Shown one piece after another: positions 3,577-42,354 of a stretch of DNA of 64,000 bases (its first letter is position 1; every line of letters begins with the position of its first letter). The position numbers and the translations under genes were made by a program. Source of the stretch: Pseudomonadota bacterium. Lineage in GTDB: Bacteria; Pseudomonadota; Alphaproteobacteria; Caulobacterales; Maricaulaceae. The notes under the pieces are model-generated. The model had not been told where the DNA came from. It did not search any database and was given only the letters and a program-made list of their open reading frames with translations. Where the stretch lies: positions 26,792-90,791 of the forward strand of contig JAZAHA010000056.1 of assembly GCA_036231565.1 (NCBI GenBank). Direction: 5' to 3'.

Positions 3577-4377
3577 TTATTTGCCAGCTGACGGAGCGGG
3601 TCGCGGCTTGCCGATCATGGTGCACACGCCCTGGCCAGCCAGGACGCGGGCCAGGCCGCCCTTCTCGTGAATGCTGAAGACGACGATCGGAATGGCGTTT
3701 TCCCGCATCAGCGTGACCGCCGAGGCGTCCATCACCTTGAGGTCGCGCGTCAGGACGTCGAGATAGTCGAGCTGATCATAGCGCTCAGCATTCGGGTTCT
3801 TGCGCGGATCGTCGGAGTAGACACCGTCGACCTGCGTGCCCTTGAGCAGCGCATCGCAGCCCATTTCGGCCGCACGCAGAGCTGCAGCCGTATCGGTCGT
3901 GAAGAAGGGATTGCCCGTGCCGGCGGCGAAGATCACCACCCGGCCCTTTTCCATATGGCGGGTGGCGCGTCGCCGGATATAGGGCTCGCACACCGTGGTC
4001 ATGGGAATGGCGGACTGGACGCGCGTCTGGACGCCGATGCGTTCCAGAGCGGTCTGCATGGCCAGCGCATTCATCACGGTCGCCAGCATGCCCATATAGT
4101 CGGCCGCGGCCCGGTCCATGCCCTTGGCGGCACCGGTGAGACCGCGAAAGATATTTCCGCCGCCGATCACCAGGCAGATTTCGGTACCGGCGCGCACGGC
4201 CTCGGCGACCTCCGACGCGATACGATCTGCCGTCGGCATATCGATCCCGTAATTCTGGTCGCCCATCAGGGCTTCGCCGGAAATCTTGAGCAGAACCCGC
4301 CGGAATTGCGGCGGGTTCTCTTGGCCTGAAACCGGCCCGGATGCAGATGAATCAGTCCCGGCGTGCAGCATATACAA
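3577..4377 (-). CDS. pyrH: UMP kinase
   Basis: [33 protein letters not shown]. The true start may be a few codons downstream. Confidence 0.96.
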
Positions 4378-6454: not shown

Positions 6455-9898
<3,444 letters not shown>

Positions 9899-10104
9899 CG
9901 CCCGCTCCGTCAGCGCTTCAGAACCGCCTCGCCACGCGCATCACCGGGACAGACGCCCGGGAATCCGGGCCGGAACCGGCCGCCGCGAGTCGAGACATCA
10001 ACAAACTACGCCAGGAACGCGTCAGGCGAAATCAGGCTTGCGGGCCCGATCTCAGTAAACGCGGCCGGAAAGGACTCCGGCACATACCACCAAGCCCGCG
10101 CGCC

Positions 10105-10200
10105 TCAAGCCGCGCCGAGCACGCTTCCCCACATGGCGATCATCCAGGCGAACCCGAGCACAGCCGTGGCGGCAGAGACATCTTGAAGAACGCGGCGCAT
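10105..10200 (-). CDS. sidA: 31-aa membrane peptide, SidA-like SOS cell-division inhibitor
   Basis: MRRVLQDVSAATAVLGFAWMIAMWGSVLGAA*, with GGAGG 5 nt upstream, LexA boxes upstream, and a position directly upstream of dnaE as for Caulobacter sidA. Below the ORF-track length cutoff. Confidence 0.82.
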   Translation of the reverse strand: MRRVLQDVSAATAVLGFAWMIAMWGSVLGAA

Positions 10201-11000: not shown

Positions 11001-12309
11001 AGCGCAGCGCCTCCACGGGATCGAGACGGGCGGCCCGCCAGGCCGGCGGCAACGTCACCAGCAACGAGACGATGAAGCCGAAGATGGAGATGAAGGCCAC
11101 CTCGCCCCAGTCCAGCTTGGCCGGAATGCGATAGAGGAAATAGACGCTGGGATCCCAGGGATTGGTGCCGGTCGTCCAGGTGATGAAATCCTGGATCGGG
11201 CCGATATTCACCACGAAAAGAATGCCCAGGAGGATGCCGGCCAGCGTGCCCAGAACGCCGATCGAGGCCCCGACGATCAGGAAAACCCGCATCACGGACG
11301 CCTGTGTGGCGCCCATCGTGCGCAGGATGGCGATGTCGCGCCCCTTGTTCTTAACCAGCATCACAAGGCCGGAGATGATGTTCATCGCGGCGATCGCGAC
11401 AACGATCGACAGGATGAGCCGCATCGCCGTGCGCTCGAACTCGAGCGCGTTGTAGAAGGCCGGATTGAGCTGGGTGTAGTCATAGGCTGCCGCATCGGGA
11501 CCGGCGAGCGCACCGATGCTTCCCACCATGCTGGCGGCCATGTCCGGATCGGTCAGCCGCACCTGGATCTGGTCGGTCCCCTCGCCCTTGGCAAAGAAGA
11601 CGCGTCCCTGGTCCAGCGGCATGAAGGCCGCACTCTCGTCGATGGTCGACACGCCGGCGGCCAGGACGGCGCCGACATAATAGGCTTTCTGGTTGGGCCG
11701 CGTCCCGAATGCTGTCGGCGTGCCGCGAGCGGTGGTGAAGGTCACCCGGTCGCCAACCCCGACAGCGAGACGCCGGGCAATCCCCGAGCCCAGGATGATC
11801 GTGTCACCGCCATTATGGCCCTCACCGAACCCGTCGAGACTGCCCTCGACGAGACCGGTGCGGCCGTCCGGCGCGGGATTGGCAATCACGTCCAGCGCGG
11901 CCACATCCTCGGGCTGGGTGCCGAGCACGACGATGACGCTCTGATAGCGCTCGGAGGAGGCCAGGACCTGGCCCTGGACCACCGGATCGGCGCTGACCAC
12001 GCCCGGCATCGCCTCAAGCTCGCGCACCAGCGCATCGACGCGCTCGGCGTCAAGATTGCGTGTATCGACATAGACATGCGGCTGAAAGCCGAGAAGCTGG
12101 CTGAAGAGCTCGGCCCGGAAACCGTTCATGATCGACATGACAGCGATCAGGCCGAGAACGGCCAGGGTGATCCCGCCAAAGGAGATCATGGCAATCAGTG
12201 CCACGCCGCCATGCTTCCGCCGGGCCCGCAGATAGCGGAAGGCCAGCATGAATTCATAGGGCGAGAAAGGGCGTGCGCCCCCGGCTGCACGGACTGCAGG
12301 ATCAGCCAT
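10993..12309 (-). CDS. lolE: Lipoprotein-releasing ABC transporter permease LolC/E
   Basis: [51 protein letters not shown]. Start placed at 12309. Confidence 0.92.
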
Positions 12310-38631: not shown

Positions 38632-40209
38632 TCACGCCGGGACGTGGGCTCCACCCGATCCTTGCGGCGCATTGCCGGTGCGGCGCTTGCGCGGGCGCCG
38701 CGGCTTGCCGCCGGCCTCGCCGCGCGCCTGCTGGCGGTCACCGGAACGCTCCTGCGACCGGCCCGGCTTGCGCTCGCCGCGTGCGGCCTGGTCGGGACGC
38801 TCGCCGCGCGGGGCGCGATCGCCGCGGAACGGTTTGCCCTCGGCCTTCTGGCCGTCGGCCTGATGGCGCTCACCGCGTTGCCCCTCACCGCGTTGACCCT
38901 GGGACTTGGGACCCTGCGATTTGGGACCGCGCGGTTTTTGACCACGGGACTTGTGATCCTGGGCATTCTGGCCCTGGGCCCGCTGACCCTGGCCCTGATT
39001 ATTGCGGCTGCGCGAGCGCTTCTTCTTCACCGGCTTGGTGTTGCGGGCTTCAGCGAAGAAATCGGCTTCCTCGCCGACAATCGCCCGCTCGATCTCGACA
39101 CCGGTGAGCTTTTCGATATCGCACAGATATTCATACTCGGACGGATCGCACAGCGAGACGGCGACACCGGTCTTGCCCGCACGGGCCGTACGGCCGATCC
39201 GGTGAACATAGCTTTCCGGAATATTCGGCAGCTCGTAGTTCACGACGTGGGAGACGTCGTCGACATCGATACCGCGCGCGGCAATGTCGGTGGCGACGAG
39301 GATTTTCACATGGCCGGACTTGAAGCCGTCCAGCGCCTTCACGCGCTGGCCCTGGGTCTTGTCGCCGTGGATGGCGGCCGATTTGAGACCGTACTGGACG
39401 AGGCTCTTGTTGACCCGGTCGGCACCGCGCTTGGTGCGGGTGAAGACGATCGAGCGCTCCACGGAGCGGTCCGACAGCAATTCCAGCAGCAGGTCGCGCT
39501 TGGAATCGCGCGGCGTCAGCACCACCGACTGCTCGATACGCTCGATCGGGCGCGAGGCCGGAGCGACCGAGATCTGCTTGGGATCGGTCAGGAGATCATG
39601 CGCCAGCGCCTTGATCGGCTTGGGCATCGTCGCCGAGAGCAGCGCCGTCTGGCGGTCTTCGGGCAGGCGGGACACGATATCGCGGATCGCCGGAATGAAG
39701 CCGAGATCCAGCATCTGGTCAGCCTCGTCCAGCACCAGGGTGCGCACCTGCGACAGGCTCACCGCGCCGGAGCGCACGAGGTCGAGCAGACGGCCCGGCG
39801 TGGCCACGACCACGTCGACGCCGCGCGCCAGCATCTTCACCTGCGGACCGATTTTCAGCCCGCCCACGACCAGCGCCGAGGAGACGCGCATGTGCTGGGC
39901 ATAGCCGCGCAGGTTTTCGAGAATCTGTGCCGAGAGTTCGCGCGTCGGCGACAGGATCAGCGCCCGGCAGGTCTTCGGCGCCGGACGCTTGTTGTCGGCG
40001 CTGATGGAATGGAGGATGGGCAGCACGAAGGCCGCCGTCTTGCCGGTGCCCGTCTGGGCAATACCGAGCACGTCGCGCCCTTCGATAAGGGCGGGAATCG
40101 CTTCGCGCTGGATCGGGGTCGGCTCGTTATAGCCGGCATCTTCAAGCGCGCGGAGAATGGGCTCGGCCAGGCCGAGTTCATTGAACTGGGTCAAAAATAT
40201 ATCTTTCAT
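38632..40209 (-). CDS. DEAD-box RNA helicase (RhlE-like) with low-complexity C-terminal tail
   Basis: From MKDIFLTQF; Q motif PTPIQ, AQTGTGKT, PTRELS, DEAD, SAT, HRIGRTARAG. Confidence 0.94.
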   Translation of the reverse strand: MKDIFLTQFNELGLAEPILRALEDAGYNEPTPIQREAIPALIEGRDVLGIAQTGTGKTAAFVLPILHSISADNKRPAPKTCRALILSPTRELSAQILENLRGYAQHMRVSSALVVGGLKIGPQVKMLARGVDVVVATPGRLLDLVRSGAVSLSQVRTLVLDEADQMLDLGFIPAIRDIVSRLPEDRQTALLSATMPKPIKALAHDLLTDPKQISVAPASRPIERIEQSVVLTPRDSKRDLLLELLSDRSVERSIVFTRTKRGADRVNKSLVQYGLKSAAIHGDKTQGQRVKALDGFKSGHVKILVATDIAARGIDVDDVSHVVNYELPNIPESYVHRIGRTARAGKTGVAVSLCDPSEYEYLCDIEKLTGVEIERAIVGEEADFFAEARNTKPVKKKRSRSRNNQGQGQRAQGQNAQDHKSRGQKPRGPKSQGPKSQGQRGEGQRGERHQADGQKAEGKPFRGDRAPRGERPDQAARGERKPGRSQERSGDRQQARGEAGGKPRRPRKRRTGNAPQGSGGAHVPA

Positions 40210-40463: not shown

Positions 40464-40496
40464 AAAACGGCCGCTCCTGGCAGGAGCGGCCGTTTT
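40464..40496. terminator. Intrinsic terminator beyond the duplicated tRNA 3' end
   Basis: AAAACGGCCGCTCCT-GGC-AGGAGCGGCCGTTTT, a 15-bp stem with T-tracts on both strands. Confidence 0.85.
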
Positions 40497-40531
40497 TCGA
40501 TCCGTGCACCACACCCTCCAACAGAGGGAAA

Positions 40532-40577
40532 TGGCGCGAGTGACGGGACTCGAACCCGCGACCTCCGGCGTGACAGG
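40532..40577 (-). repeat. att-type duplicate of the tRNA-Asp 3' portion (tRNA nt 32-77)
   Basis: 46 bp identical to 42278-42323 (49 bp with the flanking AAA); identity stops within the anticodon arm. Confidence 0.95.
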
Positions 40578-40703: not shown

Positions 40704-40731
40704 GAAGAGAGCCCCTACTGGGACTCTCTTC
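40704..40731. terminator. Hairpin downstream of the islet cargo gene
   Basis: GAAGAGAG...CTCTCTTC 8-bp stem with inner CCC/GGG, 14 bp past the stop; weak U-tract. Confidence 0.45.
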
Positions 40732-40744
40732 GTATTCAAAGCAT

Positions 40745-41932
40745 CTACAATCCGGCACGACGCTCAAGATCGCGCTTCGCGACGATATTGTGCAAGTTCG
40801 CCCAATGAGGTCGGCTCTTTCCGACCGATTGGGGATTCCTCCCCAAGCTATCGCTCATCTCTTTGGTGGCGCGAAGGAGATGGTATCCGTCTTCTCGCCA
40901 GAACTTCAGAACGTTATTGAAGGACCCGCGCCACCGATATTCACCGGTCATTGGATCAGCTTCCACATACCAACGGAGCGACGCCAAAATAGCGTACAGT
41001 GGACCACTCACCATCCGATACTCCGAGTTCTTCTGGATGAACGGAAAGCTCCACACACCCTTTTGCCGTTTTTCGGTGAAACTGAGCGCGCCTGCAGCCC
41101 CCCTCTGTCCGGCGGACGCTGCCGTACCGTTCCACAGCTCGTAGTACTCGTACCTGATGGTGTCGTAGAGCTGCAGAATATCCTTCAGGAGCGGACGCGC
41201 ATTCTCGAAGGTCTTCGCCCTGTTTTCGAACTCCGTGAGCACCTTGGACTTCTTCTCGTACGCATGAACGGGATGCTCAGGCCCGTCATTCGGGTACAGA
41301 CCGATATTGAAACACGCCAACATGCTCAGAATGTCGCGAGCGTCGAAACTGCCATAGTCGTTCTCCGACCAGGCGATTTCATCGAAGTAGGGCTCGGCTT
41401 TGAGATCGGCTTTGATCCAGTCGAAAAGACCACCCAGATTATCGAGGCTCATGTCCTGAACCTGAACGGACGTGTTCAGTCCGCCCGCGATATCAGTGAT
41501 CAGATCATCCGGCACTCCAACCCGAACCTCGATTGTGACGAACTGGTTCGCAGGCAGGATACCAAGTTTCAAATTTCGGCAAATGAGGTCGTAGGTGTGC
41601 CCACCATCGACGATCCCGTCTCGCCCAGACAGCATCTCGACCTGGTATCGATCGTTGGCCATTTGCTTGACCGACTTGGCAACAATCGTGATGCCCTTGT
41701 TTTTCAGATGGAAAGTATTCGGATAGTCGACATCCTCGTTCAGAAGGCTTTGTTCAACTTTCCGATAAACTCGCTTGTTGGTTTTTGGCCTGCGCGCATT
41801 CGGGTCAAGCGAAATACCCAAAGGCATTCCAGAAACTGGCGCCAAAAAAATATGCCGCTCCAAGCCTTCAATGACTGGATCGGCAATCCGCCGCGCCACA
41901 CGCACGGGAAATTCGACGGTAACAACCGACAT
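40745..41932 (-). CDS. AIPR-family-like protein (short form, about 395 aa)
   Basis: PNARR, FHLKNKGITIV, GIVDGGHTY and LNTSVQV match the AIPR core pattern (N.R / NNGIT / I.DGG.T / N.Q..V). Start MSVVTVEF at 41932 has GGAG upstream; the ORF-track TTG at 42040 is an alternative. Confidence 0.75.
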   Translation of the reverse strand: MSVVTVEFPVRVARRIADPVIEGLERHIFLAPVSGMPLGISLDPNARRPKTNKRVYRKVEQSLLNEDVDYPNTFHLKNKGITIVAKSVKQMANDRYQVEMLSGRDGIVDGGHTYDLICRNLKLGILPANQFVTIEVRVGVPDDLITDIAGGLNTSVQVQDMSLDNLGGLFDWIKADLKAEPYFDEIAWSENDYGSFDARDILSMLACFNIGLYPNDGPEHPVHAYEKKSKVLTEFENRAKTFENARPLLKDILQLYDTIRYEYYELWNGTAASAGQRGAAGALSFTEKRQKGVWSFPFIQKNSEYRMVSGPLYAILASLRWYVEADPMTGEYRWRGSFNNVLKFWREDGYHLLRATKEMSDSLGRNPQSVGKSRPHWANLHNIVAKRDLERRAGL

Positions 41933-42007
41933 ATTCTTCTCCGTAACTATCGCGATCTCGCGATGCTGATGAACGGTGTGCAGCGATCTCGCCGCCACCG
42001 ATTCGAT

Positions 42008-42036
42008 AATATACCGCGCACTGCGCTTCGGCACAA
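42008..42036 (-). promoter_or_regulatory. Putative sigma70 promoter of the islet cargo gene
   Basis: TTGTGC(42036-42031)-N17-TATATT(42013-42008); supports the 41932 start. Confidence 0.55.
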
Positions 42037-42277
42037 CCAAGACTTGATAAACCTCCGTCTTGCTATGCCGGAGGTCGCAAGACGTCGCCTCACGGCGAAC
42101 CGAGGCGGCGCTTTCAAAAAAAACTAGGCAGGAAAGGAAAAAAACCGGCAGAGGCTCTCAAACAAACCGCTGCGCGTTTCAACGCAAGTTGAACCTCGCT
42201 GGCTCAAAAAGTTGAAACCAGTGTCGAAATTAGTTGAAACTTTCGGGAACAGAAAATCGCTAAGCCATTGAAAAAAA

Positions 42278-42354
<77 letters not shown>

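Follow-up and report, generated by a model that had tools for sequence, protein, structure and literature searches.

We analysed a 64-kb stretch of DNA from a Pseudomonadota bacterium (64,000 nucleotides of contig JAZAHA010000056.1, assembly GCA_036231565.1), hereafter the window, on which the islet coordinates below are given. Between bioA and a DEAD-box helicase gene, a tRNA-Asp gene of the window holds in its 3' half a 1,746-bp insertion that carries a single gene, encoding a short protein of the AIPR (abortive infection phage resistance) family. This islet is a precise insertion whose presence varies among close relatives, and its gene is preceded by a predicted two-hairpin leader RNA that recurs upstream of the same gene across phyla. 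Its features, in the order in which they are met when reading the minus strand, are as follows.

42278..42354, minus strand: intact tRNA-Asp (GTC), the integration target, found by ARAGORN (Rfam tRNA, 74 bits)
42275..42323: left attachment site (attL), the copy of a 49-nucleotide (nt) repeat that completes the tRNA; exact repeat, present as a single copy in the empty sites of contigs L087, L088, L089, L093 and L094
42176..42240, no strand assigned: candidate arm-type array of 8-mers at 22-23-nt spacing, between attL and the promoter
42008..42036, minus strand: promoter-like element, TTGTGC (42036-42031) and TATATT (42013-42008) around a 17-nt spacer, read from the sequence
41933..42004, minus strand: structured 5' leader with two hairpins, hairpin 1 at about 42004-41971 and hairpin 2 at about 41967-41945
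40745..41932, minus strand: gene for a core-only AIPR protein of 395 amino acids (aa), start codon ATG at 41932
40704..40731, minus strand: terminator-like hairpin, a 12-bp stem with a tetraloop and no U-tract, 13 nt past the stop codon
40609..40616, plus strand: copy of the 8-mer matching at 7 of 8 positions, TTTTCAAC, about 30 nt inside attR, read from the sequence
40529..40577: right attachment site (attR), a displaced 49-nt copy of the tRNA-Asp 3' half; exact repeat, followed by the same chromosomal flank as the empty sites have

The length of the insertion is the spacing of the two exact 49-nt direct repeats, which begin in the anticodon loop (tRNA position 32) and extend 3 nt beyond the tRNA 3' end. 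Across the 64 kb, the islet is the sole dip in GC content of its kind (0.51-0.56, compared with 0.62-0.73 in the flanks). Between the repeats we found no credible gene besides the AIPR open reading frame (ORF), which matched no Pfam family other than AIPR, and no integrase gene. An islet at this tRNA with the AIPR gene as its only cargo had been put forward from the sequence of the window, and both points are borne out by the exact repeat, the GC dip, the empty sites and the lack of another credible gene. The islet thus shows two features of a tRNA-integrated island, the repeat of the tRNA 3' part and the empty site in relatives, and is missing the internal integrase.

We searched metagenome contigs for the empty junction, in which the chromosomal terminator is followed by the intact tRNA-Asp, and 8 contigs were returned. 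Five of them (those named for attL above) match the window at 92-96% identity on either side, and in these five window position 40577 joins 42324 directly via one 49-nt copy. Read coverage gave the same picture, since in the public runs X3 and X5 the flanks of close relatives had a depth of 16-23 and the islet a depth of 0-3.5. An orthologous islet at the same tRNA, in the same interval between bioA and the helicase gene, was found in more distant relatives, at loci L081 (flanks about 76% identical) and L086 (about 83%). In L081, the distal repeat (48 nt) is still perfect, and synonymous sites of the gene are saturated relative to the window (synonymous difference pS 0.75). L086 has lost its distal repeat and is a fossilised islet. 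A single ancient insertion followed by neutral decay was considered and does not fit the perfect distal repeat of L081, the saturated sites and the empty sites. Taken together, the empty sites, the repeat kept perfect in L081 despite saturation and the loss in L086 indicate repeated or recent site-specific integration, or else selection or gene conversion acting on the attachment sites.

Two further observations were made at L081, both also seen in L082. The distal attachment copy (7357-7425) extends to 69 nt and holds, after attR, a second copy of the flank of the islet left end, which looks like the trace of tandem accretion at the same tRNA-Asp site. Positions 7556-10174 carry an 872-aa gene with TPR and EAL domains, between the distal attachment copy and the DEAD-box helicase gene, that the window does not have.

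The AIPR gene lies in an ORF at 40745-42040 on the minus strand, 431 aa long if read from its TTG start. We consider ATG 41932 the likely real start, giving 395 aa and not 431, because all 34 aligned homologues begin at this position, with the pattern M-x(8-12)-ARRIPDP; a GGAG lies 8 nt upstream. Promoter and leader consequently fall inside the 5' extension of the longer reading frame. The protein matched Pfam AIPR (PF10592) with 70.3 bits over a gathering cutoff of 25 (E = 2.8e-19, model positions 1-205 of 308), so the family identity proposed in the original prediction passed the profile search, as did the idea that the core lies near the start: the match begins at residue 42 of 395. The motifs quoted there (PNARR, FHLKNKGITIV, GIVDGGHTY and LNTSVQV) are present and fall in invariant or near-invariant columns of the 34-sequence alignment, namely N45 A46 R47, T73-T82, G106-Y114 and L152-V158.

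A word-indexed search gave 733 relatives, of which the best 120 have lengths of about 395 aa and full-length identities of 50-94%. An exhaustive profile search gave 496 clusters at 50% identity (E <= 1e-30), nearly all of 380-430 aa and matched end to end. Genomic matches came from Alpha-, Gamma- and Deltaproteobacteria, Chloroflexota, Acidobacteriota, Planctomycetota, Actinomycetota, Gemmatimonadota, Omnitrophota and Bacillota, and diverged full-length relatives (28-31% identity) lie on small Firmicutes plasmids. The gene belongs to an already annotated family, being called "AIPR family protein" in NCBI records; what is new is the recognition of a large core-only AIPR subfamily of about 395 aa in many phyla. 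The window and L081 proteins are 94% identical, and the two genes differ by a pN (nonsynonymous difference) of 0.033 at a pS of 0.75; judged by these values, the gene is functional and long maintained, under very strong purifying selection. Among viral contigs, two IMG/VR loci and three phage records carry the family, a scan against PHROGs found nothing, and one against NCBIfam gave noise only. A phage origin of the gene was considered and is not supported, as the family is almost absent from viral contigs.

The C-terminal half of about 200 aa had been suggested as a possible, unrecognised effector, and this part of the original prediction fell. Family members P0044 and P0118 match PF10592 positions 1-275, plasmid homologues of the same length match positions 1-300 of 308, and the window protein aligns over residues 22-378 with the AIPR protein of plasmid pML21, both having an NPQS-GKS-W motif. 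By these homologue matches and this alignment, the C-terminal half is the AIPR domain's own C-terminal part and not an add-on effector. In its domain content, then, the window protein is a bare AIPR core.

Upstream of the gene, most family members have about 70-90 nt before the start codon that are predicted to fold into two hairpins followed by an AAGGAG Shine-Dalgarno sequence. In the window leader the Shine-Dalgarno sequence is GGAG (41943-41940), and the predicted minimum free energy is -30.6 kcal/mol (z = -3.6). The RNAalifold consensus has 18 pairs, all 18 with compensatory changes. Paired cells of the alignment reached 89.2%, against 55.3% in shuffles and 28-38% when partners were slid, and the covariation score was 0.817 against 0.227 in shuffles, with 0 of 500 shuffles as high. 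By our own tally, G-U cells (about 51) outnumber A-C cells (about 23), a bias that speaks for an RNA of the sense strand. R1, a covariance model of the leader, was searched over 1.44 Mb on both strands and gave 56 matches. Apart from one weak off-target, every match is in the sense orientation and lies immediately upstream of an AIPR gene; a dozen or more of the matched loci are outside the seed alignment, and the match in the window spans 41927-42018 (53.5 bits). The leader stands upstream of at least 50 of 80 short-AIPR homologues and across phyla (just upstream of AIPR genes in L001-L070), and some loci (L054, L048 and L066) have a tandem double leader. Rfam 15 gave no match at the gathering score in six loci, and no match with E <= 1 in the window region and five further loci. 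We therefore describe a new, conserved, predicted two-hairpin leader RNA that is absent from Rfam.

Both leader loops read NGGAN in most members and GAGAUC in the window, L081 and L086. Because both loops changed together, this concerted change argues for a partner that co-evolves with the cassette, rather than for the regulator CsrA. By eye, we saw no pseudoknot and no pairing sequestering the Shine-Dalgarno sequence that was common to the leaders.

The proposal that the gene has its own promoter stood in so far as TTGTGC-N17-TATATT is present and its boxes align with TTGACA/TATAAT-like, sigma-70-like boxes directly upstream of the leader in many homologous loci; at this element, GGTTGTGC is conserved in L081. 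It fell short in that a consensus scan does not call the element, whose -35 box matches 3 of 6 bases. The downstream hairpin expected from the sequence was recovered, as the 12-bp stem listed above, which folds at -25.5 kcal/mol (z = -5.8). Sequence able to form a hairpin also stands at this position in L081 and L086, and in L081 both arms carry changes.

We also looked at the islet for signs of mobility. Between attL and the promoter, the 8-mer GTTTCAAC has exact minus-strand copies at 42233-40 and 42211-18, a 7/8 copy at 42188-95 and an inverted copy at 42176-83. Exact matches in the 64 kb number 4, against 0.73 expected, and 3 of them lie inside the array. At the array's equivalent position, L081 holds GTTCCAAC three times at exactly 22-nt spacing, and on its attR side, at the relative position of the window copy, it holds GTTGGAAA with the same T/C switch. 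Since array and attR-side copy show the same switch, all 8-mer copies changed in concert between the window and L081. In the L086 islet the 8-mer repeats are absent, as is the distal repeat. The layout resembles the arm-type sites of a phage attachment site (attP), and we regard the repeats as candidates for such sites. The conserved leader RNA, these repeats and the variation in presence among close relatives go beyond what had been proposed for this DNA.

The islet fits the definition of a cis-mobilizable element (CIME), which keeps attL and attR and is devoid of integration and transfer genes (PMC5704250). The trace of tandem accretion in L081 is a further likeness. It differs from CIMEs in its size of 1.7 kb with one cargo gene, in residing in a genome of marine alphaproteobacterial type, and in having no conjugative element in view. 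No circular junction was found among the contigs aligned to the region; the joints there that skip forward or go back are other tRNA-Asp genes. Two IMG/VR contigs (L098 and L099) carry the same 46-nt tRNA-Asp half. In L099 (UViG_3300020120_000023, positions 3812-3880) this 46-nt 3' half stands without the 5' part of the tRNA and is followed by ATTTCAATGAGTTAGC, similar to the islet left end TTTTCAATGGCTTAGC; L099 thus has the flank next to the attachment core in common with the islet, whose flank there reads TTTCAATGGNTTAGC. The L099 site could represent attP in a family of phages that insert at the tRNA-Asp site and might supply the integrase. The second flank copy in L081 together with the L099 tRNA half and its similar flank suggests a family of elements that uses this tRNA site and could supply the integrase. 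A minimal islet flanked by attachment sites, with natural empty sites, is in itself a new observation.

Across the 80 genomic loci that made up the neighbourhood set, tRNA genes occur within 1.2 kb of family members 4.6 times as often as expected (P ~4e-5). Flanking repeats derived from a tRNA were found, beyond the window and L081, only in L053, L055 and L066. As a separate observation, in Lysinibacillus odysseyi (L077) the AIPR gene and its neighbouring helix-turn-helix (HTH) gene are bracketed by two exact direct repeats of 21 and 23 nt (at 9437-9501 and 11237-11303, together spanning about 65 nt) that are not tRNA-derived, which suggests another route of cassette movement.

For the neighbourhood set, ORFs within 6 kb were clustered and the 149 nearest neighbours were scanned with Pfam and PADLOC. 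No neighbour protein cluster occurred in more than 5 of the 80 loci. The recurrent clusters c1 and c2 were considered as partners and rejected, being ordinary Ser/Thr kinases and short-chain dehydrogenases. The 149 neighbours belong mainly to housekeeping families with scattered defence matches, and restriction-modification (R-M) families are not enriched among them; none adjoin the window gene, whose flanks are bioA and the helicase gene. The short AIPR gene is truly stand-alone, with no conserved partner. The original prediction had seen no partner or R-M gene around the window copy and had left to a survey of homologues whether they are solo or R-M linked; they are solo. The sole recurrent neighbour is a divergently transcribed HTH_3 regulator gene of about 95 aa in the Firmicutes branch, where loci L069, L071, L076, L077 and L079 and plasmids L095 (pML21) and L097 have no leader and carry this gene instead. 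The annotated genes of the 5.6-kb Enterococcus faecalis plasmid pML21 are the HTH-AIPR pair, RepB, an epsilon antitoxin and one hypothetical protein. MADS-system genes (mad3, mad6 and mad8) lie beside the AIPR gene in two or three loci, the only recurring match to dedicated defence among the neighbours and too rare for a functional link.

We then compared the protein with known systems. The AlphaFold2 model (mean pLDDT, predicted local distance difference test, 88.5) has an N-terminal domain rich in beta structure, and its C-terminal half is mostly helical. Against a library of viral predicted structures, the top match was an AIPR protein (E 2.5e-9), followed by a series of DndB-like, GmrSD N-terminal (DUF262) and ParB/Srx (sulfiredoxin) folds (E 1e-3 to 5e-2, probability up to 0.99). 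This modelled series agrees with the literature, in which AbiU1/AIPR is described as a ParB-superfamily domain (PMC3632139, PMC3506569). In our reading, the DGGHT glycine-rich loop stands where the DndB, DUF262 and ParB/Srx families have DGQHR, DGQQR or GxxR. Unlike these families, the window protein has no DUF1524/HNH partner domain, its helical C-terminal half is specific to AIPR, and it has no significant match among solved structures. The ParB/Srx-like core is a tentative assignment, suggested by the coherent viral-library series and weakly supported by the solved structures (given below).

The closest known system is AbiU (AbiUi/AbiU1) of Lactococcus lactis, the prototype of PF10592, with which the window protein has the AIPR domain in common. 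AbiU is plasmid-borne and a single protein is sufficient for phage resistance; AbiUi alone gives modest resistance, with a 10- to 100-fold drop in plating efficiency and delayed phage transcription, and its mechanism is unknown (PMC13064643). The same review calls AbiUi nuclease-like, citing a superposition on FokI. Long AIPR proteins linked to R-M genes (AbiU1/AIPR/COG1479) have the same ParB-superfamily core, and HEPN or nuclease fusions are described in them (PMC3632139, PMC3506569). The window protein differs in having neither such a fusion nor adjacent R-M genes, in the window or the 80 loci. At the level of the RNA, the nearest parallel is the abiF RNA motif, RCd22-AbiF of Clostridioides difficile, akin to type III toxin-antitoxin systems, where a structured RNA with two copies of a motif likewise lies immediately upstream of an Abi gene. 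There, the upstream RNA with its two abiF motifs neutralises the protein by direct binding (bioRxiv 10.1101/2025.04.15.648962). The AbiF protein (HEPN-type Abi_2) and its RNA are unrelated to those described here, and here no terminator lies between RNA and gene.

From these results we propose that a miniature integrase-less islet in the tRNA-Asp 3' half carries one self-contained expression cassette, composed in order of a sigma-70-like promoter, a leader of about 70 nt with two hairpins, a core-only AIPR protein of 395 aa and a terminator-like hairpin. The islet would act like a cis-mobilizable element that borrows its integrase in trans. The protein, as a member of the AbiU1/AIPR family, would be an abortive-infection or anti-phage factor that needs one gene only, in which the N-terminal ParB/Srx-like domain, with its DGGHT loop, may bind or hydrolyse a nucleotide, and this domain together with the helical C-terminal half of the AIPR domain may act on nucleic acid. 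Because the AbiU N-terminal region is absent, any effector activity would have to reside in the AIPR core itself or in a host factor. The leader, or the HTH repressor in Firmicutes, would keep expression or activity low, the unrestrained product being harmful. The main indirect argument for this restraint is that the subfamily has two alternative control devices, leader or HTH gene, as would be expected if the product needs to be held in check. We hold the statement as a whole, an integrase-less islet cassette for a one-gene anti-phage AIPR factor restrained by its leader, with a little more belief than doubt, and the defence role is its least certain part; what makes that role plausible is membership of the family, and only that. 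More specifically, the leader could be a cognate RNA partner, whose two loops bind the AIPR protein in cis or in trans and hold it inactive or repressed until phage infection releases it. This last idea is tentative, and we think it distinctly unlikely.

Several results weigh against the proposal of a mobile anti-phage cassette. The match to the PADLOC v2 AbiU profile is weak (E = 0.007, 13 bits, profile positions 253-331 of 537), below the threshold at which PADLOC v2 would call it; 17 of 34 family members reach E <= 0.01 with this profile, the best at 3e-4. The core common to both proteins begins at position 253 of 537 in the AbiU profile and at residue 42 of 395 in the window protein, so that the AbiU-type N-terminal region of about 250 residues is absent. 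As the short protein is without this region, the function of the tested relative may not transfer to the short form. We know of no solved structure for AIPR/AbiU. A sequence search of the PDB with the family profile gave no match, and in Foldseek comparisons, made for the full-length model and separately for its N-terminal domain, no PDB entry came in below E = 0.08, the best being a weak match to the ParB-like PadC (E 0.08-0.12, TM-score 0.45). The mainly housekeeping neighbours in the 80 loci make for a weak association with defence islands. No run of RNA sequencing contains the window sequence, which comes from a seawater metagenome, or the Bacillus homologue L064. The helper integrase was not found, as we saw no integrase domain in the tested ORFs of either the available stretch of L098 or the L099 contig (6.5 kb).

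Other explanations were weighed against the same evidence. The cassette could be a selfish addiction module, in which the AIPR protein is a toxin that the leader RNA (in Firmicutes, the HTH protein) counteracts or represses, the two together stabilise the islet or plasmid carrying them, and any effect on phages is secondary. This reading draws on the tight control in two alternative forms, Firmicutes having a divergent HTH gene where most clades have the leader, on the occurrence of the gene on very small plasmids beside toxin-antitoxin genes (such as epsilon antitoxin and Fst), on its having stayed at one site in three lineages as the only gene that a mobile islet carries, and on the AbiF toxin that an upstream two-motif RNA neutralises (bioRxiv 10.1101/2025.04.15.648962). 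Toxicity is here a putative property, however, and, as close relatives with the empty site demonstrate, the islet is lost or absent at no obvious cost. We consider this explanation unlikely, and toxin-antitoxin and abortive-infection functions are not mutually exclusive, so that it overlaps with the explanation that we prefer. A narrower alternative concerns the leader, which could be an ordinary CsrA/RsmA translational control site that ties AIPR expression to host physiology with no direct contact between RNA and AIPR protein. GGA is what CsrA recognises in loops, and NGGAN occupies both loops in the majority of the 56 matched leaders, with the AAGGAG Shine-Dalgarno sequence 5-15 nt past hairpin 2. 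GGA is thus found in the loops of most relatives, but not in those of the window leader; a global regulator does not explain why both loops of the window, L081 and L086 switched together while the stems and the gene were conserved. Moreover, CsrA is often absent in phyla or classes that carry the leader motif. On balance, control by CsrA seems improbable to us.

Two further explanations concern the islet itself. The AIPR protein, the only protein encoded between attL and attR, might serve the islet as a ParB-like binder of the phased GTTTCAAC repeats, as a directionality, maintenance or recombinase factor, which would make the islet an autonomous element of a new kind. The ParB/Srx-type structural neighbours, the concerted change of the 8-mers between the window and L081, and the enrichment of tRNA genes near family members could be read in this way. 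However, tRNA-derived repeats are confined to the window, L081, L053, L055 and L066, most of the 80 loci having no nearby tRNA or repeats; some family members sit on plasmids that encode their own Rep protein; and L086 lost its repeats and distal attachment site, yet gene and leader were kept under selection. The window and L081 proteins are nearly the same although the 8-mer differs, and tyrosine integrases classically have attachment sites arranged like this, with the block of identity beginning in the anticodon loop. We find this reading very improbable. As a general rule, the idea that the AIPR protein is the islet's own integrase was rejected, because those repeats occur at only five loci and most have no nearby tRNA. 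The islet might also be an inert deletion remnant of a larger island or prophage in which the gene survives by chance, as would suit its very small size, the lack of an integrase and the view that CIMEs arise by decay of larger elements (PMC5704250). Against this stand the low pN at saturated synonymous divergence, the recurrence of the same promoter-leader-gene cassette in many phyla, the perfection of both attachment copies with arm-type repeats that keep their position in L081, and the variable presence of the islet among near-identical relatives. For the gene, the remnant explanation is largely refuted, and overall it is barely credible.

If the reading of the leader as an RNA partner is true, short AIPR cassettes would be a widespread abortive-infection system of one gene plus RNA on a ParB/Srx fold, comparable to AbiF/RCd22 or to type III toxin-antitoxin systems, and the window copy would ride on a 1.7-kb satellite islet that borrows the integrase of a phage or island. 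AIPR/AbiU ranks among the common defence genes; a preprint cites a share of about 4% for bacterial genomes in RefSeq and itself finds the gene in 21% of single-cell genomes from the dark ocean (bioRxiv 10.64898/2026.09.15.751803). The short form would be the simplest object for asking what the AIPR domain does, having no fused nuclease or HEPN domain, no partner and conservation across phyla, and the leader RNA gives a concrete handle on regulation. With its attachment sites and naturally occurring empty sites, the tiny islet illustrates cleanly how a defence-type gene moves when it brings no integrase of its own.

Two minor observations concern the helicase side of the islet. A perfect 16-bp inverted repeat with a 1-nt gap (40464-40496) lies between the helicase gene and the displaced tRNA half, and is probably a terminator common to the helicase gene and the tRNA when the site is uninserted. 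The C-terminal tail of the DEAD-box helicase (38632-39000, minus strand) is long, basic and of low complexity, rich in Q, G, R and K, and its DNA reaches 73% GC, the maximum of the region.

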